From positions 1 to 57,346 of the IMG/VR virus record IMGVR_UViG_3300032297_000501: a DNA stretch of 57,346 nucleotides, one strand, 5' to 3'. This document shows, piece after piece, positions 1 to 22,379 of this stretch. Below the pieces are notes generated by a model, which did no database searches, was not told where the DNA came from, and saw only the letters and a list, made by a program, of their open reading frames with translations. This stretch comes from a virus. Taxonomy: Duplodnaviria; Caudoviricetes. The translations under genes and the position numbers were made by a program. The first letter of the stretch is position 1. Each line of letters starts with the position of its first letter.

Positions 1-2
1 AT

Positions 3-1028
3 AGCGATGTACTATTTCGCCCTAAGCGAAGTACAATGGGCAGTCGTAGCGAAGTTGACCTAAAGAGAACTTATACATTTAGGAACAGCCAACAAACCTA
101 TACAGGTATTCCTATCATGGCTGCTAACATGGATGGTGTTGGTACTTTTGATATGAGTTTGGCATTGGCAAAGCAGGGCTTGTTTACTTGCTTGGCTAAG
201 AGTTATCAACCAGCTGATATTCACGAATGGCTCAATACTAGTGAATATAAAGATGACCTAGTAAAAGCTATTGCAGTTAGTACCGGCATTACTGATGTTG
301 ATAGCGAACGTATTGAAGCTACACTTAAGTTTAGTCGCAGTATCAAATATGTTTGCATCGATGTTGCCAATGGCTATAGCGAAAAGTTTCTAGACTATGT
401 AGCACGTTTTAGGGACAGGTTCCCTCACGTAACTATTATTGCAGGCAATGTAGTAACGCCCGACGTAACAGAGGAATTGATTTTACGTGGAGCAGATATT
501 ATTAAAGTGGGTATCGGCCCCGGCAGTGTTTGTACTACTCGTATTAAGACTGGCGTAGGTTACCCGCAACTCAGCGCCGTCATCGAATGCGCGGATGCTG
601 CACACGGTCTCGGTGGGCATATTATTGCCGACGGCGGATGTACTTGCCCTGGTGATGTAGCTAAGGCATTTGGTGCAGGCGCGGACTTCGTGATGCTAGG
701 AGGCATGCTTGCCGGATGCGATGAAGGCGGAGGAGAGATTGGCTCCGACGACAACACAGTTAGCTTCTACGGAATGAGTTCTACTGCGGCACAAGACAAG
801 CATGGAGGCCGCAAGAGTTACAGAGCCAGTGAAGGGCGTGTAGTTAAGATTCCTTATCGCGGCGCTGTTGCTCCTGTGGTCCAAGATATTTTAGGTGGTG
901 TGCGTAGTACGTGTACATATGTGGGTGCTAAGAGTTTGAAAGAACTTAGTAAGCGTACAACCTTTATACAGGTTAATAACGGTAAACAATTTAACACAGT
1001 ATACGAAAGTAGTACTATAGGTAGCTAA
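3..1028 (+). CDS. guaC: GMP reductase (5' end lies outside the window)
   Basis: Frame is open from nt 3 ([11 protein letters not shown]), matching the GuaC N-terminus. Motifs [43 protein letters not shown]. Confidence 0.95.
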
Positions 1029-1029
1029 T

Positions 1030-1950
1030 ATGAACACAATAGATAAAATTTTTAAGTACAATAGAAGTCCAGTTATTTCTGATTTCTTTAAAGAAAAACT
1101 AAATGAGCTAATTGGTTTTGGAACCTATCATAATGAAATTGAAAAGGTCCGTGATGGTATTGTTCAAGAGCTAATTAACTACAGAGAAAAATATAAAATT
1201 ACAAATGTAGTAATTGGCATGAGCGGAGGTCTTGATAGCGCACTAACAGCAAGTCTGTATAAGGCTGCTGGTTATCATGTTATCGGTGTTACACTGCCCA
1301 TCCATCAGAATCCAGAAGAAACTGCTCGAGGTATTGAAGCTATCAAGACATTAGGATTGGATCATGTGCATATCGACTTAACTAAAGCATATGATAACTT
1401 AGTTGGTTTCTATCAAACAGAGACTGTTGACCTCACAGACAACGATAAACCTACACTAATGCGTAAAGGTAATATCAGAGCTCGCCTACGTATGATTACG
1501 CTATATAATCTTGCAGGTAGGTATAAAGGCTTTGTTGCTAGCACTGATAACTTTAGTGAGTTAGCTGCCGGCTTTTGGACACTGCACGGTGACGTAGGTG
1601 ACGTAGCACCTATCCAAAGTTTAACTAAAAGTTGGGAAGTGCCTGCATTAGCAGAGCTACAAGGTGTACCCAATAGCACTATCTATGCAGTGCCTACAGA
1701 TGGTCTAGGTATTGCCAACGGTGATGAGGATCAGTTTGGATTTAGTTATTTAGAGTTTGACATTGCTGTGTTTACTCTTATTAAAGGATTGAGTTTAGCA
1801 AATGCCACAGAACAAGATATTAAAATTATTGAAAGTGTTAAATCTAGACTAAGAGGAACTGCATTTAAACGCTCTAATCCTTATAACTTATTTCACCCTT
1901 TGTTTGGTGCTAGATTTGACGAACTCAGGATTTTAGATGAGACGCTATAA
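1030..1950 (+). CDS. nadE: NH3-dependent NAD+ synthetase
   Basis: PP-loop GMSGGLDSAL, GNIRARLRM, STDNFSE, GFWTLHGD, PTDGL, DEDQFG. No glutaminase domain. Confidence 0.9.
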   Translation: MNTIDKIFKYNRSPVISDFFKEKLNELIGFGTYHNEIEKVRDGIVQELINYREKYKITNVVIGMSGGLDSALTASLYKAAGYHVIGVTLPIHQNPEETARGIEAIKTLGLDHVHIDLTKAYDNLVGFYQTETVDLTDNDKPTLMRKGNIRARLRMITLYNLAGRYKGFVASTDNFSELAAGFWTLHGDVGDVAPIQSLTKSWEVPALAELQGVPNSTIYAVPTDGLGIANGDEDQFGFSYLEFDIAVFTLIKGLSLANATEQDIKIIESVKSRLRGTAFKRSNPYNLFHPLFGARFDELRILDETL

Positions 1951-1956
1951 TTATCA

Positions 1957-1964
1957 TATAAATA
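1957..1964 (+). promoter_or_regulatory. T4-late-like promoter TATAAATA
   Basis: Exact T4 late consensus in the intergenic gap, followed by AGGAG RBS and ATG 1998. Confidence 0.65.
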
Positions 1965-1997
1965 CTGTGTGATACACATTTATAACAGGAGAATATC

Positions 1998-2333
1998 ATG
2001 GGTATTGAACTATTAATTGTTGTGGTGCTAGTTGGCACAGGTTTAGCATTCTGGTACTTTAACAGAGATGCTAAGTCAGCTGACTTAAACAACGATGGCA
2101 AGACAGATGTTAAGGATGCAGTAGTTGCTGTTGAAAACACAGTTGAAGGTCTTAAGGCCGCCGCTGATGTTAACAACGACGGCAAAGTAAATGCAGAAGA
2201 TGTTAAAGTTGTTGCAACAAAAGCTAAGGCTACTGCTAAAAAAGCAGTTAGTAAGGCTAAGGCAGCTACAGCTAAGACAGCTAAGTCAGCTAAGACAACT
2301 ACAGCTAAGACGCCAAAGTCTCCGAAGAAGTAA
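1998..2333 (+). CDS. Small membrane-anchored protein with two EF-hand/dockerin-like loops and a Lys/Ala-rich tail
   Basis: N-terminal hydrophobic helix; DLNNDGKTD and DVNNDGKVN; KATAKKA-type C-terminus; AGGAG RBS. Confidence 0.75.
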   Translation: MGIELLIVVVLVGTGLAFWYFNRDAKSADLNNDGKTDVKDAVVAVENTVEGLKAAADVNNDGKVNAEDVKVVATKAKATAKKAVSKAKAATAKTAKSAKTTTAKTPKSPKK

Positions 2334-2342
2334 GTAGCTTCA

Positions 2343-3089
2343 GTGTTTTTTGCGTTTGACGTAGACGGCACGTTAACGCCGAGTAGGCAAAGAATTGACC
2401 CTGATTTTGAGCAGTGGTTCGTCAATTGGATGAGCTTTGTTCAAGAAAAGGGTCATTCTGTCCTTTTAGTCACAGGTAGTGATTACGAAAAGACTGTTGA
2501 GCAATTAGGTTCATCTATCACTGAATCTGTAGATTATTGTTGCAACTGTTTGGGTAATCATGTATTACACAAAGGCCAACTCATCGAATCTTACACATTC
2601 ACTCCTACACAGGAATTAATTAGATTTTTAGAAAATGAGCTTGCTAATAGCTCATATACTGAACGTTACGGAAATCATATTGAACACAGAGGAAGTATGA
2701 TCAACTTTAGTGTAGTTGGTCGTAACGCTGTAGGTGAACAGCGCAAACGCTACTATGATTGGGATAAGTTTAGCTGTGAGCGACTGACATTGGCAGAAAA
2801 GATTAACACACTCTTTCCCGATGTGTCTGCACAAGCAGGCGGCGAGACAGGTATAGATATTATACCTAATGGCAGAGACAAGCGTCAGGTAATCAAGTAT
2901 ACCGGAGATCATAAGGTTTGGTTCTTTGGTGATAGGTTGGACGATGGCGGCAACGACAAACCCTTAGCAGATGTACTGTTAGTATCTGGAACACATTCCG
3001 AAGCATTTCATGTAAAGTCATGGCAAGAGACTTGGGAGATGCTACAGGATATAACTATCAACGATTTAAATATTATGATGCATAAGTGA
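2343..3089 (+). CDS. HAD-IIB phosphomannomutase-like protein (eukaryote-type PMM family)
   Basis: FDVDGTLT, VTGSD, IEHRGSMINFSVVGRNA, GGETGIDI, FFGDRLDDGGND. Confidence 0.85.
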   Translation: MFFAFDVDGTLTPSRQRIDPDFEQWFVNWMSFVQEKGHSVLLVTGSDYEKTVEQLGSSITESVDYCCNCLGNHVLHKGQLIESYTFTPTQELIRFLENELANSSYTERYGNHIEHRGSMINFSVVGRNAVGEQRKRYYDWDKFSCERLTLAEKINTLFPDVSAQAGGETGIDIIPNGRDKRQVIKYTGDHKVWFFGDRLDDGGNDKPLADVLLVSGTHSEAFHVKSWQETWEMLQDITINDLNIMMHK

Positions 3090-3096
3090 AAAAATA

Positions 3097-3104
3097 GATA
3101 AATA
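3097..3104 (+). promoter_or_regulatory. Late-type promoter motif GATAAATA
   Basis: Intergenic copy of the recurring motif, upstream of ORF 3135. Confidence 0.55.
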
Positions 3105-3134
3105 CACTTATATAACTTATTTTAGGAGTTCACC

Positions 3135-3485
3135 ATGGGGACAGTTACATATCCAGCAGGCGCAACAACATGGAGCGTTGCTGATAGACAAGCACAAAAA
3201 GAATTTGCTGCAAAGCTACACAATATTGATATTGAAGATCTAGTTGTTGGTGTACACATCGGCCCAGAAGAATCAAACGGAGTAGGATTACCTGAAGACT
3301 TTGAAGGTCTTCGTCCTTTCCATAAAGTTGATAATCCTGCGGAAGGTTGGAACAATGGTGCCAAATATGTAGTGTATTTTGAAAACGATGCAGGTGAAAT
3401 ATTCAAAGCTATTAATGCTGATCCTTCAACTATTTCTGCACTATCAGAAGGCCCTGAGTTTGAGTCAGTGATTTCTTATAAGTAA
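3135..3485 (+). CDS. Hypothetical protein
   Basis: 116 aa ORF with AGGAG RBS; no recognised motif. Confidence 0.7.
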   Translation: MGTVTYPAGATTWSVADRQAQKEFAAKLHNIDIEDLVVGVHIGPEESNGVGLPEDFEGLRPFHKVDNPAEGWNNGAKYVVYFENDAGEIFKAINADPSTISALSEGPEFESVISYK

Positions 3486-3488
3486 TTC

Positions 3489-3517
3489 TTGACTTTTAAC
3501 AATATAGACATTATACT
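3489..3517 (+). promoter_or_regulatory. Sigma70-type promoter
   Basis: TTGACT-17 bp-TATACT upstream of the sufE-like gene and clpP. Confidence 0.7.
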
Positions 3518-3526
3518 TACTGTATT

Positions 3527-3934
3527 ATGTCGACAAATACTTTAGAAACTTATATCGAAACTATAAACGATATAAAAGATTATAGCGAATTTGTAGAGTG
3601 GGTTAACTTGCTATCTAAACAGCTAACAGTTGATCCCTCTATCAGAACACCCGAACATTTTGTCTATGGTTGCCAGGTGTCTACCTGGTTTAAGTGTTCT
3701 GTTGACGATAATAAACTTTTCTTTTCCTTTGACAGCGATTCAAATTTTGCTAAAGGGGTAGTAAAAATACTACTTGATATTATTAATGGATCAACAGCAG
3801 AAGAAATTAAAAAGTTATCATTTTATGATTTTAGACAAATTAGTCGTTACTTGCCCACAGAACGACAACGCACATTACAAATTATCTTAAATAAAGCGCA
3901 TGAACTTGCAAACACAACAGGAGAAACACAATGA
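3527..3934 (+). CDS. sufE: SufE/CsdE family sulfur acceptor
   Basis: VYGCQVSTW (GCQ catalytic Cys), FDSDS..AKG, typical length. Confidence 0.8.
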
Positions 3935-4518
3935 ACTTTGTACCATTCGTAATTGAAAAAACCAGCCAAGGCGAGCGCAGTTATGACATTTATAGTCGCT
4001 TACTCAAGGAACGCATTGTGTTTCTCAACGGCGAAGTTAACGACGCAGTTAGCAACAGCATTTGTGCTCAGCTGCTATTCCTTGAAGCAGAAGATCCTGA
4101 TGCAGACATCAGCTTCTATATTAATAGTCCGGGTGGTGTAGTTACTGCTGGTATGGCTATGTACGATACTATGCAGTACATCAAACCTGATATCAGTACT
4201 ATTGTTATGGGCCAAGCATGTAGTATGGGGTCACTGCTAGCGCAAGCTGGTACAGCAGGCAAGCGTAAGATGTTGCCAAATGCCCGGCATATGATTCACC
4301 AGCCCAGCGGCGGCGCAGGTGGTCAAGCCACAGACATGGAAATCCAAGTACGCGAAATCCTTGTCATGAAGAAGAACCTCACAGAGATTTATGTAAAGCA
4401 TAATAGCCGCGGCAAGACATTTGAGGACCTTAGCCGAGACATGGAGCGTGACTATTTTATGAGTGCAAACGAAGCATTAGCATACGGCCTAGTGGACGAA
4501 ATTATTGCCGGCCGATAA
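3931..4518 (+). CDS. clpP: ATP-dependent Clp protease proteolytic subunit
   Basis: [30 protein letters not shown] (Ser), MIHQP (His), MERD (Asp). Confidence 0.97.
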
Positions 4519-4540
4519 AGGTTTATAGTTAAATAGTGTT

Positions 4541-4906
4541 ATGCAAATAGAAAAACATTCACCTAACAAAGAGCTAATTACATTTACGGAATCAGCGCAA
4601 GAACATTTTAAACAAGTTGCTGGGTCTGCAAATGCATTAGGCGTCCGTCTTGCATTAGGCGGCGGCGGCTGTGCAGGATTTAGTTACAAATGGGAATTAA
4701 TCAAAACACCGAGTGAAATCGATGCAAGTGATTATTCTCAAGCCTATGATGGTTGGACATTCTGGTTAGACAAAACTTCTGAGCTGTATCTTATCGGTAG
4801 TACGGTAGATAAGAAAGTAGACATTTCTGGTAGTGTAATCGATATTCAATCTCCTCTCGCAGCCAGCAGTTGTGGATGTGGCGAAAGTGTTAACTTTAAA
4901 ATCTGA
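4541..4906 (+). CDS. iscA: A-type Fe-S carrier (IscA/SufA/HesB family)
   Basis: GGGCAGFSY and C-terminal SSCGCGES. Confidence 0.9.
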   Translation: MQIEKHSPNKELITFTESAQEHFKQVAGSANALGVRLALGGGGCAGFSYKWELIKTPSEIDASDYSQAYDGWTFWLDKTSELYLIGSTVDKKVDISGSVIDIQSPLAASSCGCGESVNFKI

Positions 4907-5748
4907 TGTCAAATTTTAGCTTTATCGAATACAGTTTCGACCCATACGAAAGTAATCCAGAAGATATATATTCGTCCTTAAATAGGTTAGGTTTTGTTCA
5001 ACGTAATGTTCACACATCTAATGAATCTAGTATGTGGATACAGAATCAATGCATTGTTTTGCTGAGAGAAACTTCTCTTGTTGATACACCTAAGATAACC
5101 GGCTTAGGTTTAGTAATTGACGAGTCTATTGCTGACAATGATTTTTATTTTGAAGACCAATGTGGTATGTTAGTAGCACATGATCCAAATGGTTTTAGAA
5201 TATTAGCAATGCCTGAAAAAAGTTTAACTAAGATGATAACTCACGGTTATAGAGTTGTTGATCGAAAACAATACGAAACAACCGGGATAGAATATTTTAG
5301 TGGTATAGTTTATAATACCAAAGATTCAAAAATTATAAACTTTTATGAAAACTTAGGTTTTCGTTATACAAAAAATTCTGATCGATATGACACACTTATG
5401 TCAAAGAATAACAGATTTACCCTCCTTCTAAATAAAACAGATGATTCTAATTCTGTTGATATTCTATACGCTGATACAAATGATGTGTTTAAAACAACTA
5501 GTCATTATACAGTTGCAGGGTTTGACTCTAAAGAATATACAATTGACAAAGACAATTTAACTTTTGGCTCTAAACTTAATCATAAAATTATTGGTTATAA
5601 CTGTCTTGCTAAAGGTAACCGAGAAAGTTATACAATTGAAAATAGTGTTAGGCAACCGTTGCCTAGTTTTGATTTAATATTTAGAACTAGAAAGCAATAC
5701 CTACATATTGAAGAAGAAATTGTAGAGACGCACTATGCAACAGCGTAG
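4906..5748 (+). CDS. Hypothetical protein, possibly a divergent VOC/HppD-like fold
   Basis: N-terminus FSFIEYS...LGF...H.S...W.Q...IVLL resembles HppD; second FYENLGF repeat; metal ligands not evident. Confidence 0.45.
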   Translation: MSNFSFIEYSFDPYESNPEDIYSSLNRLGFVQRNVHTSNESSMWIQNQCIVLLRETSLVDTPKITGLGLVIDESIADNDFYFEDQCGMLVAHDPNGFRILAMPEKSLTKMITHGYRVVDRKQYETTGIEYFSGIVYNTKDSKIINFYENLGFRYTKNSDRYDTLMSKNNRFTLLLNKTDDSNSVDILYADTNDVFKTTSHYTVAGFDSKEYTIDKDNLTFGSKLNHKIIGYNCLAKGNRESYTIENSVRQPLPSFDLIFRTRKQYLHIEEEIVETHYATA

Positions 5749-6348: not shown

Positions 6349-7085
6349 TGAGAAGTCTATCGTTAGAAAAATCTAGTAATATCAAGTTAATTGTACTAGA
6401 AAACAAACGTTTCGTTGTTAGACATTACGAAATTAGTTTTTCGATGCTAACGAGAGTTGGTGAAGATCAAAAGGAAATGAGTGAATTGCATCTAGAGCAA
6501 AATATTAGTTTTGCTAAAGTGATGTGCTTTGTTGATGTAATACTCAACGACAGTATTGTTATTACCGCAGATAGCTTACCCCACTACGAAAAAACTTTGT
6601 GCGAATTTTCAAACAATTATGTTTTAATTCCTGATACAGAGGATTCATCGATCATCAATGTACTGACCTCAAAGTTTAATGCTATTGTTGGTGATAACAC
6701 TGAAGTTAATTCTGTTACATTGGTAGACCTAGATGATCAGTTAAAGTACCGGTTAGATTTGTTTGAAGATGATGAAGAAGAGGACAACGATATTATTAAT
6801 ATCAAGGAGTGGTTAGGTGAGTTTGCACTTAATGATGTTCCTTGGTGGCAGAGAGGTGACATCACTACTTGGGATGGTGTAGCTAAGAATCAAGAAGAAT
6901 TTGACGCAATTAAAAATATTACATCTGACGACGAACACGTATCTATATTTGACGATATCGAAGAAAGTATTAGAACTTTGTATAAATCTACACAGCAGAA
7001 AAATGTAGAAGCAGAAGCAGATGTAATTGAAGTAGATTTTCAAACCGAAACTAAAAAGAAAAAATGGAAACCAAAATTGGTTTGA
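6345..7085 (+). CDS. Hypothetical acidic protein
   Basis: 246 aa ORF with ATGA overlap; PWW motif; basic C-terminal tail. Confidence 0.7.
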   Translation: MMRSLSLEKSSNIKLIVLENKRFVVRHYEISFSMLTRVGEDQKEMSELHLEQNISFAKVMCFVDVILNDSIVITADSLPHYEKTLCEFSNNYVLIPDTEDSSIINVLTSKFNAIVGDNTEVNSVTLVDLDDQLKYRLDLFEDDEEEDNDIINIKEWLGEFALNDVPWWQRGDITTWDGVAKNQEEFDAIKNITSDDEHVSIFDDIEESIRTLYKSTQQKNVEAEADVIEVDFQTETKKKKWKPKLV

Positions 7086-7114
7086 TTGACATAGTAGATA
7101 AAGTGTGTTATAGT
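7086..7114 (+). promoter_or_regulatory. Sigma70-type promoter
   Basis: TTGACA-17 bp-TATAGT just upstream of ORF 7122. Confidence 0.7.
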
Positions 7115-7121
7115 TTAGACT

Positions 7122-7580
7122 ATGAATATAATTAAAGCAACTGAGTTAGATGGAATCGAGCTACTGTATAATAATAAGCAGATTGCAGGGATTCCTTTTG
7201 ATAACATTGCCCAATTTAATCAGTATGCAGATTTATTAGAAATTGAGAAATTAGTTGACTCAGTTGAGTATAGTAAAGATTTTAATATACCACAGAGGTA
7301 CAAAGAACTAGATGTAGAGGGTTTCTTAACCAGCATTGTAGAGGATGCTGACTCTAGTAGACGAGCGAGAGTATCCGAAGAGCTTGAGATGTTTCGTGCC
7401 AGGAACCTATTTCCAGTATTACAATTACTGATATATATTGTAGACACCATGCGTAAATATAATCTTGTTTGGGGTGTGGGTCGAGGCAGTAGCGTAGCCA
7501 GTTACTGTTTATACTTAATAGGTGTACATAAAATTGACAGCGTTAAGTATAATTTAGATATTCGCGAATTTTTAAAATGA
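7122..7580 (+). CDS. Stand-alone fragment of DNA polymerase III alpha (DnaE-like palm region)
   Basis: RVSEELE...YIVD..R....WGVGRGSSVASYCLYLIGVHKIDSVKYNL..EFL matches the DnaE GRGS..S...Y.LGIT.IDP..Y.L.FERFL block; only 152 aa. Confidence 0.85.
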   Translation: MNIIKATELDGIELLYNNKQIAGIPFDNIAQFNQYADLLEIEKLVDSVEYSKDFNIPQRYKELDVEGFLTSIVEDADSSRRARVSEELEMFRARNLFPVLQLLIYIVDTMRKYNLVWGVGRGSSVASYCLYLIGVHKIDSVKYNLDIREFLK

Positions 7581-7587
7581 GGAAAGT

Positions 7588-8019
7588 ATGACAATTAAAC
7601 GAAGCAACAGAGGCGTACAGATCGACTTTGATGCGCTAATGGCAAAGGCAGGAGAAGCTACTGCTGTTGGCAACATGCGAGTAAACGCCCAAGGTGATGT
7701 GCTCGGTAGAGGCGGCGAAGTCGTTCAGAAGAACGAAGAGCGTGTTAGAGCTTACTATAAAAATAATCCTCGTAGTAGTACATCAGCAAGTCTCAAGGGT
7801 GAAACGCCTACACAAAAGTTACAACCTGACACAACAGCCCCCGGAACACCAAAGACAGCCGCCACAGCAAAAGAAAATGTTCGTACTGCAAAACCAATTC
7901 CTGACCCTGTTACAGAACCGGATGAGTTTGATGCACCAAACGAACCTATTGGATATAGAGAAGTAGAATTGCCTAACGGCGATATTGAAATGGTTCCTGT
8001 GTACAAGCAAGATGAGTAA
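7588..8019 (+). CDS. Hypothetical protein
   Basis: 143 aa; AVGNMRVNAQGDVLG N-terminal block, Pro/Thr-rich linker; GAGG RBS. Confidence 0.7.
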   Translation: MTIKRSNRGVQIDFDALMAKAGEATAVGNMRVNAQGDVLGRGGEVVQKNEERVRAYYKNNPRSSTSASLKGETPTQKLQPDTTAPGTPKTAATAKENVRTAKPIPDPVTEPDEFDAPNEPIGYREVELPNGDIEMVPVYKQDE

Positions 8020-8365
8020 CACATCAACAATCACTACCGGCGGTATAGCAGTAGCTAACGGCGGCACCGGAGTTATCCAAACAACATCATTACCTACCAT
8101 AACTGCTGGTTCTCCTGGTCAAGTACTTACAACAGGAATCAACAGCTCACCATTTAGTTTTGTTAATCCTCCTAAAAACTTTAAAGCAGGAGCACTTACG
8201 ATTAAAGCCGGTGATGGTAACGAAGAAGCAGAAATTGATGCTGCCTTCATTAATGATTTAAAATTATTAATGGAAATAATTCAGGAAGTCCCAGACGAGC
8301 ATCCACTGGGAGATTTAAAACATGATTTGCGGAACCGCCGCGCTTTTAAGAAACTTGGAGGTTAA
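8012..8365 (+). CDS. Hypothetical protein with tail-fibre-like motifs (start revised to ATG 8012)
   Basis: IAVANGGTG and AGSPGQVLTT motifs; in-frame ATG overlaps the end of the upstream gene. Confidence 0.55.
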   Translation: MSNTSTITTGGIAVANGGTGVIQTTSLPTITAGSPGQVLTTGINSSPFSFVNPPKNFKAGALTIKAGDGNEEAEIDAAFINDLKLLMEIIQEVPDEHPLGDLKHDLRNRRAFKKLGG

Positions 8366-8737
8366 ATGAAACTGCGAGCAATTAGAGATAACATTCTTTG
8401 TACCGACGGCGACTTTGGAGACAAGGTTACTGCCGGTGGGTTAATTGTAAAAAGTACAATTGGTAAGAGCGAAGGTATTGTACCTCGCTGGTTCCGTGTA
8501 TTTGAAGTAGGCAGTGACATTGATTGGATCGAACCAGGGCAGTGGGTGTATGTCGAATACGGACGTTGGACTGAAGCTGTTGAAGTTGAAGACGAACGAT
8601 TTGACACCGAAAATAACAAAAAGAAGATTTGGAAGGTTGATCCTAGTGCTTGCCTGTTAGTATCAGATGAAGCACCTAGCGATACTATTACATTCAACAC
8701 AGAGGCAGTTAGCGCAATTAAGAAAGAGTTGTACTAA
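8366..8737 (+). CDS. groES: GroES-like co-chaperonin
   Basis: MKLRAIRDNIL, KVTAGGLIV mobile loop, V.EVG, I.PGQWV. Confidence 0.75.
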   Translation: MKLRAIRDNILCTDGDFGDKVTAGGLIVKSTIGKSEGIVPRWFRVFEVGSDIDWIEPGQWVYVEYGRWTEAVEVEDERFDTENNKKKIWKVDPSACLLVSDEAPSDTITFNTEAVSAIKKELY

Positions 8738-8913
8738 TGAAACTACCTGAATTTAATAATATAACTGTATCGGGAGGCTTAACAACAATTGGTTTGTTAG
8801 GTGTATCCCTTACTGTTTTAGTTGCCCTCGATAAAATTAGTGAATGGTGGCTTATTCTAAGTGTGTTATGCATACTTATGGGCGTTGGGATGGAATCAGG
8901 TAAACGTAAATAA
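8737..8913 (+). CDS. Small two-TM membrane protein (58 aa, not in ORF track)
   Basis: TAATG overlap with the groES-like stop; reads MKLPEFNNITVSGGLTTIGLLGVSLTVLVALDKISEWWLILSVLCILMGVGMESGKRK and fills the gap exactly. Confidence 0.7.
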   Translation: MKLPEFNNITVSGGLTTIGLLGVSLTVLVALDKISEWWLILSVLCILMGVGMESGKRK

Positions 8914-8916
8914 TAT

Positions 8917-9156
8917 ATGCCCTTCATAGAAAAACTAGGCGTTGAAAAAGTAAAAGAACAGATTTGGCAATACCAATATGTTTGCACTGACCCCAGAATG
9001 GACGGGTTTGTTGGTTTTGATTGTAAACAAAGATTATATGAAATAAAATTTGCTGTAGATGAAGCATTAGCTAAATGTCCTGCTTATCACGGCGAAGAAG
9101 AATGGCTTGAAGAGAAACGTACAGATAAAGCATTTCAAAAATTGGGGAATAGGTAA
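8917..9156 (+). CDS. Hypothetical protein
   Basis: 79 aa ORF translationally coupled to the ugd-like gene. Confidence 0.65.
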   Translation: MPFIEKLGVEKVKEQIWQYQYVCTDPRMDGFVGFDCKQRLYEIKFAVDEALAKCPAYHGEEEWLEEKRTDKAFQKLGNR

Positions 9157-9956
9157 TGAGACTAAGATTAGGTGTTGTCGGCAGTGGCTTCGTTGGCGGA
9201 GCAGTAATTAATGGTTTTAACGAACCTAATGTTGACATGTGGGTAGTTGATCCAAAGAAAACCACAACGACGCTACAACAGCTAGCAGAAGCCGGCACTC
9301 ATATTACATTCATTTGTTTACCTACACCTGAGGGTGCCGACGGCTCTGTTGATGTTTCTATTGTAGACAATGTGTTATCGGATCTCAACAAGTTTGCGTA
9401 TGATGGATTAGTTGTTATTAAAAGCACAATTACACCCGATCATCTAACACGATTTGTTGAGCAGTACGATCTACGCATTGTCTATAATCCAGAATTTTTA
9501 ACAGAAGCAAACGCACATCAAGACTTTATCAACCCGCCAATGCAGATCCTGGGCGGTGTTTGGGAAGAGTGTGAAATTGTTGAGCGTGCGTATGTTGAGT
9601 TCAGTAAGGTAAAAGTAGTACCTACGTTTAAAACTGATATTGTAAGTGCTAGTTTGCTCAAGTATACTATAAATAGTTGGCTAGCAACTAAAGTATCTTT
9701 TATGAACGAGTTGTACCAATTGCATAAAACCAGTGGTGCAAAAACTTCGTGGGATCAATTTACTGATATGTTACAGCGTGACAAACGCATAGGTGACAGT
9801 CATTTACGTGTTCCAGGACCAGATGGACAGTTTGGTTTTGGTGGACATTGTTTTCCTAAAGATACAGCAGGTTTGCTAAGTTACGCAGATAAGAATAAAG
9901 TTAACTTATCTGTACTAAGCAAAGCAGTAGAATTCAATGACCACATCAGGAAATAA
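9156..9956 (+). CDS. ugd: UDP-glucose/GDP-mannose dehydrogenase family protein (short form lacking the C-terminal domain)
   Basis: GSGFVG Rossmann motif, FICLPTP, IKST, YNPEFL, KYTIN, GFGGHCFPKD (catalytic Cys). Confidence 0.85.
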   Translation: MRLRLGVVGSGFVGGAVINGFNEPNVDMWVVDPKKTTTTLQQLAEAGTHITFICLPTPEGADGSVDVSIVDNVLSDLNKFAYDGLVVIKSTITPDHLTRFVEQYDLRIVYNPEFLTEANAHQDFINPPMQILGGVWEECEIVERAYVEFSKVKVVPTFKTDIVSASLLKYTINSWLATKVSFMNELYQLHKTSGAKTSWDQFTDMLQRDKRIGDSHLRVPGPDGQFGFGGHCFPKDTAGLLSYADKNKVNLSVLSKAVEFNDHIRK

Positions 9957-10704
9957 GTATAAAACAGTTTTTATCAGTGATGTTCACTTAGGCACACACG
10001 GATGCCAAGCAGAAGCATTAGTTAGCTTTCTCAAAGAACACACTTGCGATTCTTTATATCTTGTTGGCGATATCATTGACGGTTGGCGTCTTAAGAAACG
10101 CATCTACTGGCCACAAAGTCACAGCGATGTTATACGAAGAATATTAACTGTAGCTCGTAATGGTAATAGAGTTTATTACATATTAGGCAACCACGACGAA
10201 GCACTACGCAAATGGTTAACGTTTGATCTACGCTTCGGTCGTGTGCGTATTTTAAACAGACAAGACCATATTGCACTAAATGGTAAACGTTATCTTGTTG
10301 TACACGGCGACATGTTTGACGGCTTGATGCAGAAAGACTGGAAGTGGCTTATGCACGCCGGTGATATTGCTTATAATTTATTAATTTGGCTAAACATTAA
10401 ATTTAATATTGTCCGCGGTTGGTTAGGTATGGACTACTGGAGTTTAAGCAAATACTTAAAAACAAAAACCAAAGAAGCAGTAAGTTTTGTCGACGGCTTT
10501 GAAGAAAAGCTAGCAGCCTACGCTGATCAAAAGGGATATGCTGGTGTTATTTGTGGACACATTCACAGTGCTGCAATCAAAAACATTAACGGCATAGAAT
10601 ATTTAAACACAGGCGACTGGGTCGAAAGTTGCACTGCTATAGTGGAGACGCACGATGGAAACTTCAAACTTGTCGACTGGTCAAAAAATATTAATCGTAA
10701 CTGA
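9937..10704 (+). CDS. plcP: Metallophosphoesterase of the PlcP (LpxH2-like) phospholipase C type
   Basis: YKTVFISDVHLGTHGCQA, LYLVGDIIDGWRLKKRIYWPQSH, GNHDE, HGDMFD, YWSLS, ICGHIH, YLNTGDWVESCTA; adjacent to an Agt-like GT4. Confidence 0.8.
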   Translation: MTTSGNKYKTVFISDVHLGTHGCQAEALVSFLKEHTCDSLYLVGDIIDGWRLKKRIYWPQSHSDVIRRILTVARNGNRVYYILGNHDEALRKWLTFDLRFGRVRILNRQDHIALNGKRYLVVHGDMFDGLMQKDWKWLMHAGDIAYNLLIWLNIKFNIVRGWLGMDYWSLSKYLKTKTKEAVSFVDGFEEKLAAYADQKGYAGVICGHIHSAAIKNINGIEYLNTGDWVESCTAIVETHDGNFKLVDWSKNINRN

Positions 10705-11683
10705 TGCGTGGCGTCAGATTAATGGGGTAGTTACTACATTAGAAAATCTTAATCGTACTCTCACAGATATGGGTCACGACGTAGATTTTTTAAACTATGA
10801 TGATGCTGACTATACCTGCGATATGCCATTCTACCCTGAAGTCAAACTTGCTTATGTTAAGCAGTATGTTATAAAAAGAAAAGTAAACTGGGCTGATGCA
10901 GTACATATTGCTACGCCAGAAGGTCCAATTGGCTTTAAAACTTTACGCTATTGTGTAAAGAATAAAATTCCATTTACCACAGGCTATCATACCAAGTGGC
11001 CCGAGTTTGTGCGAGCCCGTTTACCTATACCAACTTCATTAACTTATGCGTATATGCGTTGGCTACACAAGCACAGCAAAAACATTTTAGTACCAACCCA
11101 AACTGTTGTAGACGAACTTGGATTAAAAGGATTTTGCAATCTTGTTGTTTGGACACGCGGTGTAGACCAAACTATATTCAATCCTAGTAGCAGAACAAAA
11201 CTTATTTGTGGTAAACCATTGTTGTTATGTGTAACCAGAGTAAGTCACGAAAAAGGCTTAGACGATTTTTGCAAACTCGCTTATCCTGGTGCAACTAAAA
11301 TGATAGTAGGTGATGGTCCATATCGTGCTGAGCTTGAAGCAAAATATCCTGATGTTATTTTCACAGGAGTGAAACGCGGTAAAGATCTAGCTGATTATTA
11401 TGCAAATGCTGATGTTTTTGTGTTCCCTAGCAAATCGGATACATTTGGTGTAGTAATGATTGAGAGCATGGCCTGTGGCACACCTGTTGCTGCCTTCCCC
11501 GTAACAGGACCATTAGATGTCATTAAACACGGTGTAACAGGTGCAATGGACAATAATTTGAATACTGCTATAGATATGTGTTTAACACTAGATAGAAAAA
11601 AGGTATATAGCAATAGCCTCGAATGGTCTTGGGAAAAATGTGCAGTTCAATTTATCAATAGCCTTACCAAAAAGAAATCTTGA
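10655..11683 (+). CDS. agt: GT4 glycosyltransferase, Agt-like diacylglycerol glycosyltransferase
   Basis: KILIVTDAW.QINGVV.TL, VHIATPEGPIG, FTTGYHTKWPE, WTRGVD, RVSHEK, DVFVFPSKSDTFGVVMIESMACGTPVAAFPVTGP. Confidence 0.8.
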   Translation: METSNLSTGQKILIVTDAWRQINGVVTTLENLNRTLTDMGHDVDFLNYDDADYTCDMPFYPEVKLAYVKQYVIKRKVNWADAVHIATPEGPIGFKTLRYCVKNKIPFTTGYHTKWPEFVRARLPIPTSLTYAYMRWLHKHSKNILVPTQTVVDELGLKGFCNLVVWTRGVDQTIFNPSSRTKLICGKPLLLCVTRVSHEKGLDDFCKLAYPGATKMIVGDGPYRAELEAKYPDVIFTGVKRGKDLADYYANADVFVFPSKSDTFGVVMIESMACGTPVAAFPVTGPLDVIKHGVTGAMDNNLNTAIDMCLTLDRKKVYSNSLEWSWEKCAVQFINSLTKKKS

Positions 11684-11708
11684 CAACTTTGCTTTTATAC
11701 TTTATAAT
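11680..11708 (+). promoter_or_regulatory. Sigma70-type promoter (perfect consensus)
   Basis: TTGACA-17 bp-TATAAT; the -35 box overlaps the TGA stop of the GT4 gene. Confidence 0.8.
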
Positions 11709-11730
11709 AAGAAAACTATAGGAGTAAGTT

Positions 11731-11919
11731 ATGCCAATACCTGAACAAATTATTATCCCTGCTGCCAAAGATCCAGGCCGCGGCCATTTTTATGTAAGTC
11801 TTAGTAAGAGTGCTATCCGCATTGCTGCTGGGGTATTTTTGATCCAAGGCAACATTGTGGGAGCAGGTCTTCTTCTAATTGGTGCTGAACTATTGGGCGT
11901 TATTGAAGAAATTGTATAA
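11731..11919 (+). CDS. Small membrane protein
   Basis: 62 aa, AGGAG RBS, hydrophobic C-terminal half. Confidence 0.7.
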   Translation: MPIPEQIIIPAAKDPGRGHFYVSLSKSAIRIAAGVFLIQGNIVGAGLLLIGAELLGVIEEIV

Positions 11920-11922
11920 GCA

Positions 11923-13380
11923 ATGAAAGTATGTATTCTTAGTGAAAATTCTAATGGTGTTGTCCCTTGGGTACATTATAGAAATTTAGGGGCCAGCGAA
12001 GTTTCTAAACGATTATACGCTAGAAACATAGAGTGTACTACAGTAGAGTGGTTCACGCATTGGGATCAGGGCGACCTCTATACTTGTGTTAAACAATATC
12101 TAAGCGGTACCGATCGACCAGTTATTGCTATTAGTGTACCTTTCGTGCCTGATGACATTTATAAGATTAAAGATGTTCTTTTTAAACTTAAACGTAGTAT
12201 TCCTAACCTCACTGTTATAAGCGGGGGCAACAGAACCTACGATAAAAAATTATCTGATGTAGTTGATTATTTCTTTATTGGCCGTAGTATGGAAATTTTC
12301 GAATCTTGGTTAGACGGCAAAGATTTATCTAAATTTATATCAAACCAATCAAATGTTTTTCTAAATAGAAATATTAATGTTGCGTTAGAGGATCCAGTTT
12401 TACCTCATTTTAGTGATGCAGATTATTTAAATTCAAACGATGTTTTAGGGTTTGAATTAGGTATTGGTTGTAGATTTAATTGTGCATTTTGTAATTTTGA
12501 CTTGAGAAAGATGCACAATCCTAAGATGGCAAATGCTGACAAAATTGCAGCTACCCTTAATGAATTGTATTCCAAATACGGAGTATATAATTATTTTGTC
12601 ACAGACGATACAATTAACGAGTCAATTGATAAAATGCAAGTATTAGCTGACGTAGTATCAAAACTAAATTTTAAAATAAACTTAACTGGATATTGTAGAT
12701 TAGATTTATTAGAAAGTCCTAAACAACAAGAGCTATGGCAGAAGATAAATTTAGCCGGCGTCTTTTTTGGTATTGAGACTTTTAATCCTGAATCAAGTAA
12801 GCTGGTTAGAAAAACCAGTCGCATTTCTTCTCAAATAGAAACTTTAAAAAAGCTAAGGAAACTTACACCTAATACTTTTTTAAGTTGTGGAATGATAATT
12901 GGTTTAACGGGAGATAGTAGAGAACATATCTTAGATAGTATGGAAAATGTATCTCAAAATAATCTTTTGGATTGTATGCAATACAACGTCCTTAATCTTC
13001 CTGAAATGGAAACAGATATTTTTGACGAATACATGCTTAGTGACATGTCTAAGAATCCTGAAAATTTTGGATATACAATAACTGGTAAGATACCTAGAAC
13101 AGACTTGTCGATACAATCAAAATTAAGGTGGAAGAACGATTGGTGCGATTCAGAAAGCGCACTTAAAATATATGGCGAAGTTAGACAAAAGCTAAAAGGA
13201 CAAAACTTAAGTAATGCTGATGCGTTTGAATACCTTTCCTTTTTGAGTTTAGGTATAGTTGATGAAAAGGAATCGGTTAGAAAAATGGAACAACTTATTA
13301 TTTCTAAAGCATCAAAAAAAGCTGATAAACTTCGTGCCGAATATATTGAAAAGAAAAAACAACATCTATTAAACAGTTAA
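11923..13380 (+). CDS. Radical SAM protein with N-terminal B12-binding-like domain
   Basis: GCRFNCAFC, TDDTINE, FFGIETF, GMIIGL. Confidence 0.85.
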   Translation: MKVCILSENSNGVVPWVHYRNLGASEVSKRLYARNIECTTVEWFTHWDQGDLYTCVKQYLSGTDRPVIAISVPFVPDDIYKIKDVLFKLKRSIPNLTVISGGNRTYDKKLSDVVDYFFIGRSMEIFESWLDGKDLSKFISNQSNVFLNRNINVALEDPVLPHFSDADYLNSNDVLGFELGIGCRFNCAFCNFDLRKMHNPKMANADKIAATLNELYSKYGVYNYFVTDDTINESIDKMQVLADVVSKLNFKINLTGYCRLDLLESPKQQELWQKINLAGVFFGIETFNPESSKLVRKTSRISSQIETLKKLRKLTPNTFLSCGMIIGLTGDSREHILDSMENVSQNNLLDCMQYNVLNLPEMETDIFDEYMLSDMSKNPENFGYTITGKIPRTDLSIQSKLRWKNDWCDSESALKIYGEVRQKLKGQNLSNADAFEYLSFLSLGIVDEKESVRKMEQLIISKASKKADKLRAEYIEKKKQHLLNS

Positions 13381-13396
13381 CACACAGGAAAAACAT

Positions 13397-14320
13397 ATGA
13401 AAGAACTTTGGACAGAAAAATATCGACCTAACAATATCAACAACTATGTGTTTCGCGATGCTAAACAGAAGCAACAAGTAACAGGTTGGTTGAAGGACGG
13501 AGCATTACCACACTTGCTATTCAGCGGTGCACCTGGTACGGGCAAGACTACACTAGCCAAAGTATTGCTCAACGAGCTAGGTATCAACAGTATGGATGTA
13601 CTAGAGATTAACGCATCTAACGAAAACAACGTTGATACTATTCGCAATAAGATTACTAACTTTGCAAGTACTATGCCATTCGGTGACATGAAGTATGTGT
13701 TGCTAGACGAAGCTGATTACATTACACCAAACGGTCAGGCAGCACTGCGTGGCGTTATGGAAATGTATCATACTTGCTGTCGCTTTATTCTTACCTGTAA
13801 TTATCCACAGCGTGTTATTCCTGCACTTCATAGCAGAACACAAGGCTTCCACATTGAGAAGTTGGATGTTACCGAGTTCACTGCTCGTATTGCAGAGATC
13901 TGTGTAACTGAAGGTGTTGATATTGATTTAGAAACACTAGACACTTATGTACAAGCAACCTACCCTGACTTGCGTAAGTGTATTAACCTAGTACAGCAAA
14001 ATGTTGTTGATGGTGCGCTACAGAAGCCTCAAGCAGGAGATGGTAACCAAAGTGATTGGATGCTTAGTGCTATTGACTTGTTCAAGAACGGTGAGTTCAA
14101 ACCGGCACGTGAACTTATTGTAAGTCAAGCTCGCCCAGAGGAATATGATGAAGTATATCGCTTCATGTATCGTAACTTAGATCTATGGGGCAAGAGTCAA
14201 CTACAGCAGGATCAAGCTATTGTTATTATTCGCGACGGTATGTCTAAGAGTAGCTTGTGCGCTGACCCTGAAATCAATCTTAGTGCAACACTAATTGAGC
14301 TACAATTAAATAGCAATTGA
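13397..14320 (+). CDS. Clamp loader AAA+ subunit (RFC small subunit/gp44-like)
   Basis: LWTEKYRP, GAPGTGKTT, EINAS, LLDEAD, FILTCNY, LHSR, PDLRKCIN. Confidence 0.93.
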   Translation: MKELWTEKYRPNNINNYVFRDAKQKQQVTGWLKDGALPHLLFSGAPGTGKTTLAKVLLNELGINSMDVLEINASNENNVDTIRNKITNFASTMPFGDMKYVLLDEADYITPNGQAALRGVMEMYHTCCRFILTCNYPQRVIPALHSRTQGFHIEKLDVTEFTARIAEICVTEGVDIDLETLDTYVQATYPDLRKCINLVQQNVVDGALQKPQAGDGNQSDWMLSAIDLFKNGEFKPARELIVSQARPEEYDEVYRFMYRNLDLWGKSQLQQDQAIVIIRDGMSKSSLCADPEINLSATLIELQLNSN

Positions 14321-15822
14321 TGCACACATATGACGGCGCCATAATTTTAGAATGTACTAATACGTTTGAAAAAAATCGTCAACGTAGTGGTATTATTAGA
14401 CCGTTGGCGCCGTTTGCTCTCAATCAATTATTTGTTGAACGTAACATACCTTCAACGGTAATCAACTATGTTAATGGTTGGCAACATACTGTATTAATAC
14501 AAACACTGTTGCAATGGATTAATAAAAATAATATATCTAATCCATTAATTCTTTGCAGTACATTATTTAATGAGTACCTTCTCAGTAAAGGTTCCCATGT
14601 TTCTAATATAATATTAGAACTGAAACAACATTACCCTAAACTAGGTTTAATTGTTGGTGGCCCCATCAATCTAATTGATTACAATTTCGATGAGTTACTT
14701 CCAGATGCGGTCTTTCAAGGTCGCAGTCTACATTTGTTTGAACAATGGTTGGACAAGCCCGATTATATTGAACCTAACACAGTAAAAGTTATTAATGGTA
14801 TTCCTACCTATCACAGGGAAACTAATACAGTTGTTGAAAATCCAATTGTACCTAAATTGTACAATGACTACTGTTTAACAGCAAATGATATTTTGCAGTT
14901 TGAAGTGAGATTAGGCTGTAAATTTAATTGCACCTTTTGTACATTTGAATTTAGAAATGCTAAACGAGTAAATGATACGTCAGCTGACTGTTTAACAAAT
15001 TTCTTTAAAGATGCAAACAATAATTTTGGTATCACTCGTTTTAGCTGTGTAGATGACACGTTTAACGAAGATGACAACAAGATTAAAACGCTTAAAGCCG
15101 CGGTTGATAATTTAGATTTTAAACCTATTATTGTTGGCTATAATCGATTTGATATTATGCAGGCCAAACCTGAACAAGCAGAATTGCTAGATAGTTGCGG
15201 CTTCATAGGACATTATTTTGGTATCGAAACTCTTCACCGCGAAGCTAGTAAGTATATTAGAAAAGGTATACATCGCGAGCAAGCATTTGAATTTTTGAGA
15301 TACATTAAAGAGCAATTTCCGCACTGGCACGTGTGTAGTGGGTATATCATAGGACTACCTAAAGAGCCTATAGAACATATCACTGAAACACATCATTTAA
15401 TTAGACACGAACGTTTGATTGATGCTATAATTCCTGTTGACTTAGGGTTGTATCAAATACCAGGTAATGAACATAACTACAGTGATTTCAGTAAGAATCC
15501 GGAACAGTTTGGTATCAAAGTACTAGGCGGCGATCCAAAGAATTTGAATTGGCAACATGAGCTAATGGATAAAGGTACAGCAAAAATACTTGCTAAAACA
15601 TTAGCTAGTAAGAATATTCGTGCAGGAGTTACAACTATTGATCCCTGGGAAGCACTGAGCAGAGACGCAATCGGTTCAGATGATATGTTTGGTTGTAAAA
15701 CATACAAGGACAGGATGGCTGCTGATCCTACACAGCTCTATAGTGATGAGTGGTATGTACTGAGCAACGAACATATTGCTCAGTACATACAGCGTAAAGT
15801 ATCTTACATTAACAGCTTATAA
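14317..15822 (+). CDS. Radical SAM protein (paralogue of 11923..13380)
   Basis: GCKFNCTFC, VDDTFNE, YFGIETL, GYIIGL, SDFSKNPEQFG. Confidence 0.85.
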   Translation: MMHTYDGAIILECTNTFEKNRQRSGIIRPLAPFALNQLFVERNIPSTVINYVNGWQHTVLIQTLLQWINKNNISNPLILCSTLFNEYLLSKGSHVSNIILELKQHYPKLGLIVGGPINLIDYNFDELLPDAVFQGRSLHLFEQWLDKPDYIEPNTVKVINGIPTYHRETNTVVENPIVPKLYNDYCLTANDILQFEVRLGCKFNCTFCTFEFRNAKRVNDTSADCLTNFFKDANNNFGITRFSCVDDTFNEDDNKIKTLKAAVDNLDFKPIIVGYNRFDIMQAKPEQAELLDSCGFIGHYFGIETLHREASKYIRKGIHREQAFEFLRYIKEQFPHWHVCSGYIIGLPKEPIEHITETHHLIRHERLIDAIIPVDLGLYQIPGNEHNYSDFSKNPEQFGIKVLGGDPKNLNWQHELMDKGTAKILAKTLASKNIRAGVTTIDPWEALSRDAIGSDDMFGCKTYKDRMAADPTQLYSDEWYVLSNEHIAQYIQRKVSYINSL

Positions 15823-16572
15823 TTATTCTTCGCCGTAAATGCGTAGCACTTCTTCTACTACAGGGTGACGTTCAATATCGCCTCTGTCAAAGTTTACTAC
15901 TTTAATTCTTTCTGAACCTCTATCTAATAGACGCTCCATAAACATTTTTAGACCATTGCTTTCGTAACCTCTATCATGTTGGTTAAGGTCACCGGTTACT
16001 ACTAGCTTGCTGCCGTCGCCGATACGTGTTAACAACATCTTCATTTGACTGTCAGTTGCGTTCTGCATTTCGTCTGCAATAATAAAACTATTCTTAAATG
16101 TTCTACCACGCATGTAAGCAAGGGGTGCAATCTCTAGTTTATTTGCTTTTAACAAATATTCAAGTTGCTCTGGATGATAGTATTCCTCAAAAATGTCAAA
16201 GATTGGACGAGTCCATGGTGCCATTTTTTCTTGTAGAGTTCCTGGTAGGAAGCCGTGTTGTTCGTCTACACTGACCGCTGGTCGTGTTAATACAAACTTA
16301 TCGATATATCCTTTTTTAAATCCTTTGATACCTGCTAAGGTTGAGATTAGTGTTTTACCTGTTCCTGCCGGACCAATCGCAAACACTATGTTGACGTTGT
16401 CATCTTCTAAATGACCCAATAAATCGTCTTGGTGAAAATTTCTTGGTACAATATTTACATCTTTCTGTCTGGGCTTTGTAACAGCACCGCCCTCGATTAC
16501 TCTCAAATGGTTTTCTCCTTTATTGTTGAACTCTTTTGCATACTCGCGTTCTTTTCTTCTGCGACGTGACAT
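15823..16572 (-). CDS. phoH: PhoH-like ATPase
   Basis: GPAGTGKT, LTRPAV, GFLPG, PLAYMRGRTF, IADEMQNAT, LTRIG, VTGD, RHP. Confidence 0.95.
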   Translation of the reverse strand: MSRRRRKEREYAKEFNNKGENHLRVIEGGAVTKPRQKDVNIVPRNFHQDDLLGHLEDDNVNIVFAIGPAGTGKTLISTLAGIKGFKKGYIDKFVLTRPAVSVDEQHGFLPGTLQEKMAPWTRPIFDIFEEYYHPEQLEYLLKANKLEIAPLAYMRGRTFKNSFIIADEMQNATDSQMKMLLTRIGDGSKLVVTGDLNQHDRGYESNGLKMFMERLLDRGSERIKVVNFDRGDIERHPVVEEVLRIYGEE

Positions 16573-22372: not shown

Positions 22373-22379
22373 CTAATTA

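Follow-up and report, generated by a model that had tools for sequence, protein, structure and literature searches.

A candidate phosphate-stress lipid-renovation gene pair, plcP-agt, carried as a two-gene insert by a phage that is probably a large freshwater myovirus

The closest described relatives of the genes treated here belong to the bacterial PlcP-Agt operon, represented by PB7211_983/PB7211_960 (GTcp) in Pelagibacter sp. HTCC7211, by Agt in Agrobacterium, and by PA3219/PA3218 in P. aeruginosa. A plcP gene followed by agt is the "type 2" arrangement of Sebastián et al., whose methods describe complementation of a Phaeobacter sp. MED193 plcP mutant with PB7211_983 (PMC4796936), and PA3219 is reported to be 46-47% identical to two characterized PlcP proteins (preprint 10.1101/2021.04.14.439775). 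GTcp of Pelagibacter HTCC7211 is described as transferring Glc, Gal or GlcA from UDP-sugars to diacylglycerol, and its clade as less than 25% identical to other GT4 glycosyltransferases (PMC8231724). Here we describe the same two families, side by side, in IMGVR_UViG_3300032297_000501, an IMG/VR virus record analyzed whole (the window, 57,346 bases, rated 14% complete by CheckV). We consider it fairly probable that the bacterial phosphate-stress lipid-renovation operon plcP-agt is carried there as a two-gene phage insert that frees lipid phosphorus. An earlier note on this DNA knew of no characterization of the pathway in phages, and our literature search likewise turned up no account of plcP or of the PlcP-Agt route in any phage.

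That note placed three overlapping genes at 9156-11683, and the list of open reading frames (ORFs) gives exactly these coordinates. On the plus strand, with overlaps of 20 and 50 nt, lie a mini UDP-glucose-dehydrogenase-like protein (ugd, 9156-9956, 266 aa, PF03721 + PF00984), a PlcP-type metallophosphoesterase (mpe, 9937-10704, 255 aa, PF00149) predicted to act as a phospholipase C giving diacylglycerol, and an Agt/GTcp-type GT4 (gt4, 10655-11683, 342 aa, PF13439 + PF00534/PF13692), a predicted diacylglycerol glycosyltransferase. The motifs quoted for the esterase (SDVHLGTHGCQA, DGWRLKKRIYWPQSH, NTGDWVESCTA) and for the GT4 (IVTDAWRQINGVVTTL, HIATPEGPIG) are present in the translations, and phoH, said to lie about 4 kb away, is found 4.1 kb downstream of the block at 15823-16572 on the minus strand (PF02562, E 8.7e-68). 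Contigs from an independent DNA run span the junctions orf79/ugd, ugd/mpe, mpe/gt4, and gt4/downstream. The three genes occur together on at least seven metagenome contigs at 78-99% amino acid identity, and another contig holds ugd, mpe, and the first 30 residues of gt4. They are compositionally phage-like, with GC and GC3 inside the spread of the window, and all three are under strong purifying selection. Nei-Gojobori ratios of nonsynonymous to synonymous change (dN/dS) against close relatives, several with dS near saturation, run from 0.015 to 0.156 across 19 gene pairs. The 7 dehydrogenase pairs give 0.017-0.093, the 8 esterase pairs 0.015-0.057, and the 4 GT4 pairs 0.090-0.156. Neither a chimeric assembly nor a recent transfer accounts for the block: the composition, the independent contigs, and the dN/dS values speak against both.

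The esterase matches PF00149 (E 9.2e-15) and has the complete motif set of a calcineurin-like metallophosphoesterase (DxH, GD, GNHD, HGD, GHxH); the metal-site residues D15, H17, D45, N85, H86, D87, H123, D125, H208, and H210 are invariant in its alignment. Its best NCBIfam rows are two equivalogs for LpxH, both falling below cut-off (TIGR01854, 53.5 bits vs 190.35; NF003743, 61.6 bits vs 134). Among five gammaproteobacterial genomes with a homolog, true LpxH scores 170-240 bits against TIGR01854 in four, with no match in the fifth; a second paralog at 36-46 bits is found in three of those four, and the phage esterase scores near this second kind. It is 48-58% identical to its 80 best bacterial loci, including Pelagibacteraceae, Roseibium/Labrenzia, Mesorhizobium, Bradyrhizobium, and SAR86, and a search of five genomes returned exactly one match in each (290-305 bits), always the agt-adjacent gene. 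A tree was built from the window, 2 phage isolates, 46 viral contigs, 80 bacteria, and 5 LpxH, the annotated E. coli lpxH among them, 134 rows in all; it separates the five LpxH from the 129 PlcP-type rows at an approximate likelihood-ratio support (SH-aLRT) of 100, on an LpxH branch long enough to draw a warning from the tool; the window lies inside the 129, nearest to two viral contigs at 98. The motifs bear out this split. GNHD is present in 127 of the 129 PlcP-type rows, the window's esterase being one that has it, and in none of the five LpxH, GNRD occurs in all five LpxH and in none of the 129, and GDW[VIL]E occurs in 126 of the 129 and again in no LpxH.

Solved LpxH chains match the esterase at E ~1e-6 only, their GNRD aligning to the phage GNHD. 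The AlphaFold model (predicted local distance difference test, pLDDT, 78) has a phosphoesterase core with a helical insertion at residues ~124-198, and its top 25 PDB fold matches are all LpxH, at template-modeling (TM) scores of 0.52-0.64 and 18-22% identity; no PlcP structure is found among the PDB sequence or fold matches, and a paper on B. cenocepacia PlcP (PMC13691135) yielded no usable information on LpxH, motifs, or the active site. Identification of the esterase as a predicted ortholog of bacterial PlcP is well supported by its sequence, and the phylogeny groups the window with the agt-linked PlcP-type clade instead of LpxH, as the earlier note had proposed. Two esterases from metagenome-assembled genomes (MAGs), L010 (58% identical to the window) and L011 (56%), nest inside a mainly viral clade. 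L010 has no GT4 beside its esterase despite room for one, and the locus of L011 is cut by the contig end; phage contigs binned into MAGs, prophages, and phage-to-cell transfer are all possible explanations for their placement.

For the GT4, the comparison can be made residue by residue. Fifteen residues of GTcp are implicated by mutagenesis or docking in the published account: Gly16, Leu56, Gly82, Gly85, His104, Thr162, Arg163, Arg190, Lys195, Asp256, Thr257, Phe258, Gly259, Glu264, and Trp320 (PMC8231724). A 334-aa Pelagibacteraceae homolog has all 15 letters at the paper's numbers, and the window's GT4 keeps 15 out of 15 (G24, L65, G90, G93, H112, T167, R168, R195, K200, D262-G265, E270, W326). 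These include the His-Asp catalytic dyad (H112/D262 for His104/Asp256), with Asp where other GT4 enzymes have Glu, and the predicted diacylglycerol-site residues Thr162, Arg163, and Trp320 (T167, R168, W326). The UDP-sugar motifs GRVAxEKN and FPSxTDTFG read TRVSHEKG and FPSKSDTFG in the window; the mutagenized R, K, D, T, F, G, and E are kept, and the flanking G, N, and T differ. The phage GT4 is 36-49% identical to plcP-linked GT4 genes. When it was searched against five genomes, the plcP-adjacent gene was the best match in all five (220-303 bits) and other GT4 proteins reached at most 35 bits, with the exception of a second match of 263 bits in one genome, which may be a second agt. The 15 residues, the plcP-adjacent best matches, and the GT4 tree bear out the assignment as Agt/GTcp-type, and it is well supported that this protein is a putative ortholog of bacterial Agt/GTcp. 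A tblastn search of phage isolates yielded distant matches of at most 34% identity only, some of them in bacterial-looking records, and no phage Agt.

The pairing itself mirrors the bacterial operon, as had been suggested. Bacterial loci were taken as the 80 best genome matches to the phage esterase, and a GT4 homolog lies directly downstream on the same strand in 64 of these (gap 8-430 nt, median 67.5); 13 have room but no such gene, and 3 are cut by the contig end. Nor is plcP-agt a one-off in viruses. Among 71 GT4-seeded viral loci from IMG/VR the esterase recurs directly upstream in 48 and stands 0.8-1.3 kb away in 4, 7 being cut and 12 having none; the Agt forms a phage clade of its own, and the genes are under purifying selection. 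Further phage genes of the window recur in some of these loci: one has gp31-like, clamp-loader, and phoH genes, two others have a polymerase of 45-48% identity, and another has a virion protein. Other loci are only putatively phage. PlcP also occurs without agt in phages, as in Pelagibacter phage Mosig, Synechococcus phage S-SRM01, and four further cases (L003, L005-L007). The Mosig homolog (in region 6900-8735, 56% identity) is divergent beside a phosphate ABC transporter gene, and that of S-SRM01 (4995-5699, 37% identity) is near psbA fragments. In both records the esterase carries the name of a lipid A enzyme, UDP-2,3-diacylglucosamine hydrolase or diphosphatase. The gene goes unmentioned in the S-SRM01 paper (PMC8557907), and a term search of the Mosig genome announcement (PMC7892664) gave no match.

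The earlier note had read all three genes as a single ugd-plcP-agt cassette. Its plcP-agt pair stands, but ugd proves to be a resident phage gene. None of the 16 ugd-seeded viral loci contains the esterase or the GT4. One of them, L090, whose clamp loader and PhoH are 94% and 98% identical to those of the window, is DNA-collinear on both sides of the block and lacks window positions 9866-11702, so that its dehydrogenase is followed directly by a promoter-like element and a 62-aa ORF. Conversely, the dehydrogenase is found in only 2 of the 71 GT4-seeded viral loci, and at E<=1e-8 none of the 80 bacterial loci has a homolog of it less than 8 kb from plcP. The mini-dehydrogenase family sits in a conserved gp31-to-clamp-loader neighborhood of related phages, independent of plcP-agt. 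The 16 loci without plcP-agt and the collinearity of L090 show plcP-agt to be an accessory insert of two genes beside a resident dehydrogenase gene, set in a variable island that lies between gp31 and the clamp loader. On 13 metagenome contigs the order orf79-dehydrogenase-esterase-GT4 is kept, as far as they reach, at 59-99% identity. Here orf79 (8917-9156, plus strand, 79 aa) is a small conserved ORF directly before the dehydrogenase start, with no Pfam or PHROG family, and in related loci, both viral and metagenomic, homologs of it at 38-96% identity precede the mini-dehydrogenase.

Just past the GT4 stop and before the next gene, a sigma-70-type promoter consensus, TTGACA-17-TATAAT with 12 of 12 positions matched, occupies 11680-11708 on the plus strand. 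In L090 a TTGACA ... TATACT element precedes the same 62-aa ORF, and the putative promoter in the window, a consensus match only, would mark the downstream boundary of the insert. The ORF behind it, at 11731-11919, is hydrophobic and has no family. Promoter-like sites as a whole number 11 in 8300-12100 against a shuffle mean of 11.3, and a terminator scan of the same interval found 0 where 2.7 were expected. Two radical SAM proteins flank the clamp loader, at 11923-13380 (485 aa) and 14317-15822 (501 aa), and are variably present in close relatives; they have weak matches to B12-binding/PhpK/HpnJ-type NCBIfam models, far below cut-off, and no PHROG family.

That the genes are phage-borne, as claimed, is shown by the IMG/VR virus record, by its PHROG matches (a gp31-like head-morphogenesis protein, a gp44-type clamp loader, a family-B DNA polymerase, and a virion protein), and by a polymerase like those of large phages. 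The marine, SAR11-centered frame in which the note had set them is not supported. Twelve sequencing runs contain at least half of the sampled words from window 8900-11950, and 11 of these, from several studies, are labeled freshwater or riverine; the twelfth, labeled plain "metagenome," could be the source sample itself. The window's polymerase has its closest relatives in phages of 349-490 kb (42-46% identity to Sinorhizobium phage Phosso, Vibrio phage 2.275.O, Agrobacterium phage Atu_ph07, and Pectobacterium phage CBB), and a GT4 with 95% identity to the window's is found on a 343-kb contig. Because of the run labels, the likeness of the polymerase to jumbo phages, and the 343-kb contig, the window is probably a fragment of a large T4-like, jumbo-related freshwater myovirus and not of a marine pelagiphage. 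The 2.5-kb block has no blastn match among phage records, and a tRNA scan of the window found none.

In many lakes and ocean gyres growth is limited by phosphorus, an element in which phages are rich; the phage phosphate genes known so far act on uptake. During infection, PlcP would cleave host glycerophospholipids to diacylglycerol and phospho-head groups, and Agt would then glycosylate the diacylglycerol from UDP-sugars. The membrane would stay intact, and the freed lipid phosphorus would go to replication of a very large genome in phosphorus-poor water. A phage plcP-agt pair would thereby draw on host membrane phospholipid while keeping the membrane whole. Phosphate mining for DNA synthesis is a reasonable inference from the genes, and the position of the Mosig homolog beside a phosphate ABC transporter gene, together with phoH 4 kb away in the window, links them to phosphate.

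Several observations weigh on the other side. PlcP releases phospho-alcohols, not phosphate, and no phosphatase was identified beside it. Matches to the Pho-box consensus CTGTCATNNNNCTGTCAT with at most 3 mismatches number 4 in the window where 5.8 are expected by chance, and none lies within 3.5 kb of the genes, the consensus being the E. coli type only and a phage possibly using its own timing. Short contigs from three freshwater metatranscriptome runs match the block in part at 95-100% identity, covering stretches of ugd, its junction with mpe, mpe, and the 3' end of gt4 and leaving most of gt4 uncovered; RNA libraries can hold DNA, and such partial coverage is no proof of transcription. 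The trees contain no experimentally characterized PlcP or Agt and are anchored by synteny, residue numbering, and published identities. Bacterial rows entered the trees for their likeness to the query and viral rows through patterns drawn from the window's protein, so that neither family is sampled evenly. The GT4 tree, whose viral and bacterial sets were both chosen by likeness to the window and are uneven samples, places all 60 viral rows and the window in one group at 98, apart from all 64 bacterial rows. Because the phage Agt clade is separate and its first UDP motif is altered (TRVSHEKG, not GRVAxEKN), donor or acceptor specificity may have shifted in the phage enzyme.

An alternative to the two-gene insert is a full three-gene route, in which the 266-aa protein is an active UDP-glucose 6-dehydrogenase supplying UDP-glucuronate and the phage makes anionic glucuronosyl-diacylglycerol by itself. 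We regard this as unlikely. The ORFs do overlap in one string, the ugd-mpe-gt4 order is kept in relatives to ~60% identity (L004/L008, L213), and GTcp and Agt are reported to accept UDP-glucuronate (PMC8231724), but the distribution of the dehydrogenase described above, resident in loci without plcP-agt, rare beside phage GT4 genes, and absent near bacterial plcP, points the other way. So does its domain content. The protein has the NAD-binding domain (PF03721, 63 bits) and the central/dimerization domain (PF00984, 68.5 bits) of UDP-glucose dehydrogenases (UGDHs). The C-terminal UDP-binding domain, PF03720, is found neither in it nor anywhere in the window at E<=1, by a search that was positive in 14 of 14 control genomes and over the family cut-off in 11. 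Against the nucleotide-sugar dehydrogenase model TIGR03026 it scores 149.2 bits vs a cut-off of 189.8, and it aligns to residues ~72-301 of 450-aa UGDHs, with some 30 residues of the N-terminal domain also missing. Because the UDP-binding domain is absent, it is doubtful on domain grounds that this protein feeds UDP-glucuronate to Agt, and the earlier statement that "Ugd makes UDP-glucuronate" is not supported for the 266-aa form; judging by its sequence, its substrate should not be assumed to be UDP-glucose. Supply of the C-terminal domain by a separate ORF was also considered, and no candidate is found in the window, orf79 being without family, in a record that covers only ~14% of the genome. 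On the sister contig L004 the GT4 is followed by another ORF of the UGDH family (8214-9362, at least 383 aa), and the contig ends before the point at which a C-terminal domain would begin.

What argues for an enzyme of some kind, and also for the three-gene route, is conservation. Nineteen family members, down to 59% identity, share the NAD motif, the NPEFLTE stretch, K169/N173, and GGHCFPKD without variation, and the dN/dS values given above are low. GGHCFPKD aligns with GGSCFPKD of 3gg2, and its cysteine is presumably the UGDH catalytic nucleophile. The top 120 homologs are all 263-281 aa long, with two domains only, on contigs of up to 334 kb. The nearest ESM Atlas clusters are 257-274 aa (of the four listed, three are 100% Viruses and one 73%), and phage isolates reach at most 37.5% identity, the S-SSM7 version being full-length (coding sequence of 1,152 nt, ~383 aa); by these sequences the short form is apparently virus-specific. 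The structural model (pLDDT 88.6) matches UGDH and GDP-mannose dehydrogenase folds over ~40-50% of the target. A homodimer model, which likewise speaks for the three-gene route, passes, scoring 0.92 against 0.00 for the best of 3 controls, with contacts agreeing at 98% or more across runs and partner pLDDT of at least 94. Of 30 proteins solved as pairs of one chain 20 reach this mark, against 1 of 23 solved as single chains, and, UGDH dimers having already been solved, the pass may reflect likeness or memory only. From the conserved motifs and the models, the dehydrogenase looks like an active, dimeric, NAD-dependent enzyme, and its truncation is a separate, testable puzzle in a well-studied enzyme family.

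The same PlcP-Agt biochemistry might instead benefit the phage by changing the envelope: superinfection exclusion, receptor display, lysis timing, or membrane stability over a long latent period. Lipid renovation is described as altering membrane-protein content in ways that may affect phage receptors (PMC9804370), phage glycosyltransferases have been read as surface modifiers against coinfection (PMC7029224), and no Pho-type regulation was found in the window. We nevertheless think it improbable that the envelope is the main benefit, since the several phages with plcP and no agt fit head-group release better than glycolipid display, and the gene in Mosig stands beside one for a phosphate transporter. 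A much longer shot, for which we would claim very little, is that the dehydrogenase makes no use of UDP-glucose and oxidizes a nucleotide-free glucoside, most attractively Agt's own glucosyl-diacylglycerol, giving an anionic glucuronosyl lipid at the membrane. If true, it would complete, with plcP-agt, a self-contained and phage-specific path that leads from phospholipid to an anionic glycolipid replacing phosphatidylglycerol (PG), and would define a new substrate class for the UGDH superfamily.

The least tenable alternative, already disfavored, has the esterase as LpxH of lipid A synthesis with the GT4 and dehydrogenase modifying lipopolysaccharide (LPS) or O-antigen, and we think it very improbable: source names of homologs say "LpxH," the Mosig and S-SRM01 annotations agree, its best NCBIfam rows, like its 25 top PDB fold matches, are LpxH, and lpxH is counted among LPS auxiliary genes in a virome study (PMC10653327), but the esterase falls below both cut-offs, has GNHD in place of GNRD, is split from LpxH at support 100 with only 18-22% identity to solved LpxH, has as orthologs agt-linked genes of Pelagibacteraceae and other Alphaproteobacteria among others, and is followed by a GT4 with the diacylglycerol-site residues of GTcp. 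That Mediterranean study reports lpxH among LPS auxiliary genes at surface depths (PMC10653327), and a pelagimyophage survey reads UDP-glucose dehydrogenase and glycosyltransferases as LPS/O-chain genes (PMC7029224). If the genes counted in these reports are the same as those described here, part of the "LPS" signal would be lipid renovation.

Elsewhere in the window, two genes could bear on the supply of UDP-Glc and UDP-Gal for Agt: GalE, a UDP-glucose 4-epimerase at 49897-50925 (331.7 bits vs an equivalog cut-off of 262.3), 38 kb from the block, and a phosphomannomutase-like haloacid dehalogenase (HAD) protein at 2343-3089, 7 kb from it. Host-like genes are dense at 1-5000 and 21557-24584 (GMP reductase, NAD synthase, SufE, ClpP, an IscA-type Fe-S protein, DnaJ, and a 734-aa ATP-dependent protease/AAA protein). 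GTP cyclohydrolase I at 51679-52491 and a small radical SAM/4Fe-4S protein at 53238-54128, the latter with a radical SAM match below cut-off, may belong to a 7-deazaguanine pathway. A membrane protein of the Bax1-inhibitor family at 48024-48701 (PF01027, E 2e-50) is 63-67% identical to ORFs of two viral contigs of the plcP-agt type.

Compared with known systems, then, the phage esterase shares with LpxH a metallophosphoesterase core with a helical insertion, and it differs in identity, in its GNHD, in scoring below the equivalog cut-offs, and in standing in a separate clade. The dehydrogenase resembles UGDH (PDB 3gg2, 4a7p, 1dli) in its NAD and central domains, catalytic-cysteine motif, fold, and a dimer modeled through the central domain; unlike UGDH, it has no C-terminal domain at all and misses ~30 residues of the N-terminal one, and this short form looks virus-specific. 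Marine T4-like phages carry the phosphate-acquisition auxiliary genes pstS, phoA, and phoH. The plcP-agt pair is like these in bringing a host-derived phosphate-stress function into a T4-like phage, with phoH nearby and the Mosig homolog adjoining a pstS-type gene, and unlike them in that it would act on the membrane lipid pool of the cell and not on external phosphate (for pstS, see PMC9983427). The closest likeness remains that to the bacterial PlcP-Agt operon. The phage version differs in being phage-borne, in having no Pho box, in an Agt of its own clade, in ORFs that overlap where the bacterial genes are separated by a gap, and in being preceded by a truncated dehydrogenase gene, unlike all bacterial loci examined. 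It is nevertheless made of the same two families, with plcP directly upstream of agt, at 48-58% (PlcP) and 36-49% (Agt) identity to bacterial pairs and with every one of the 15 GTcp residues in place.

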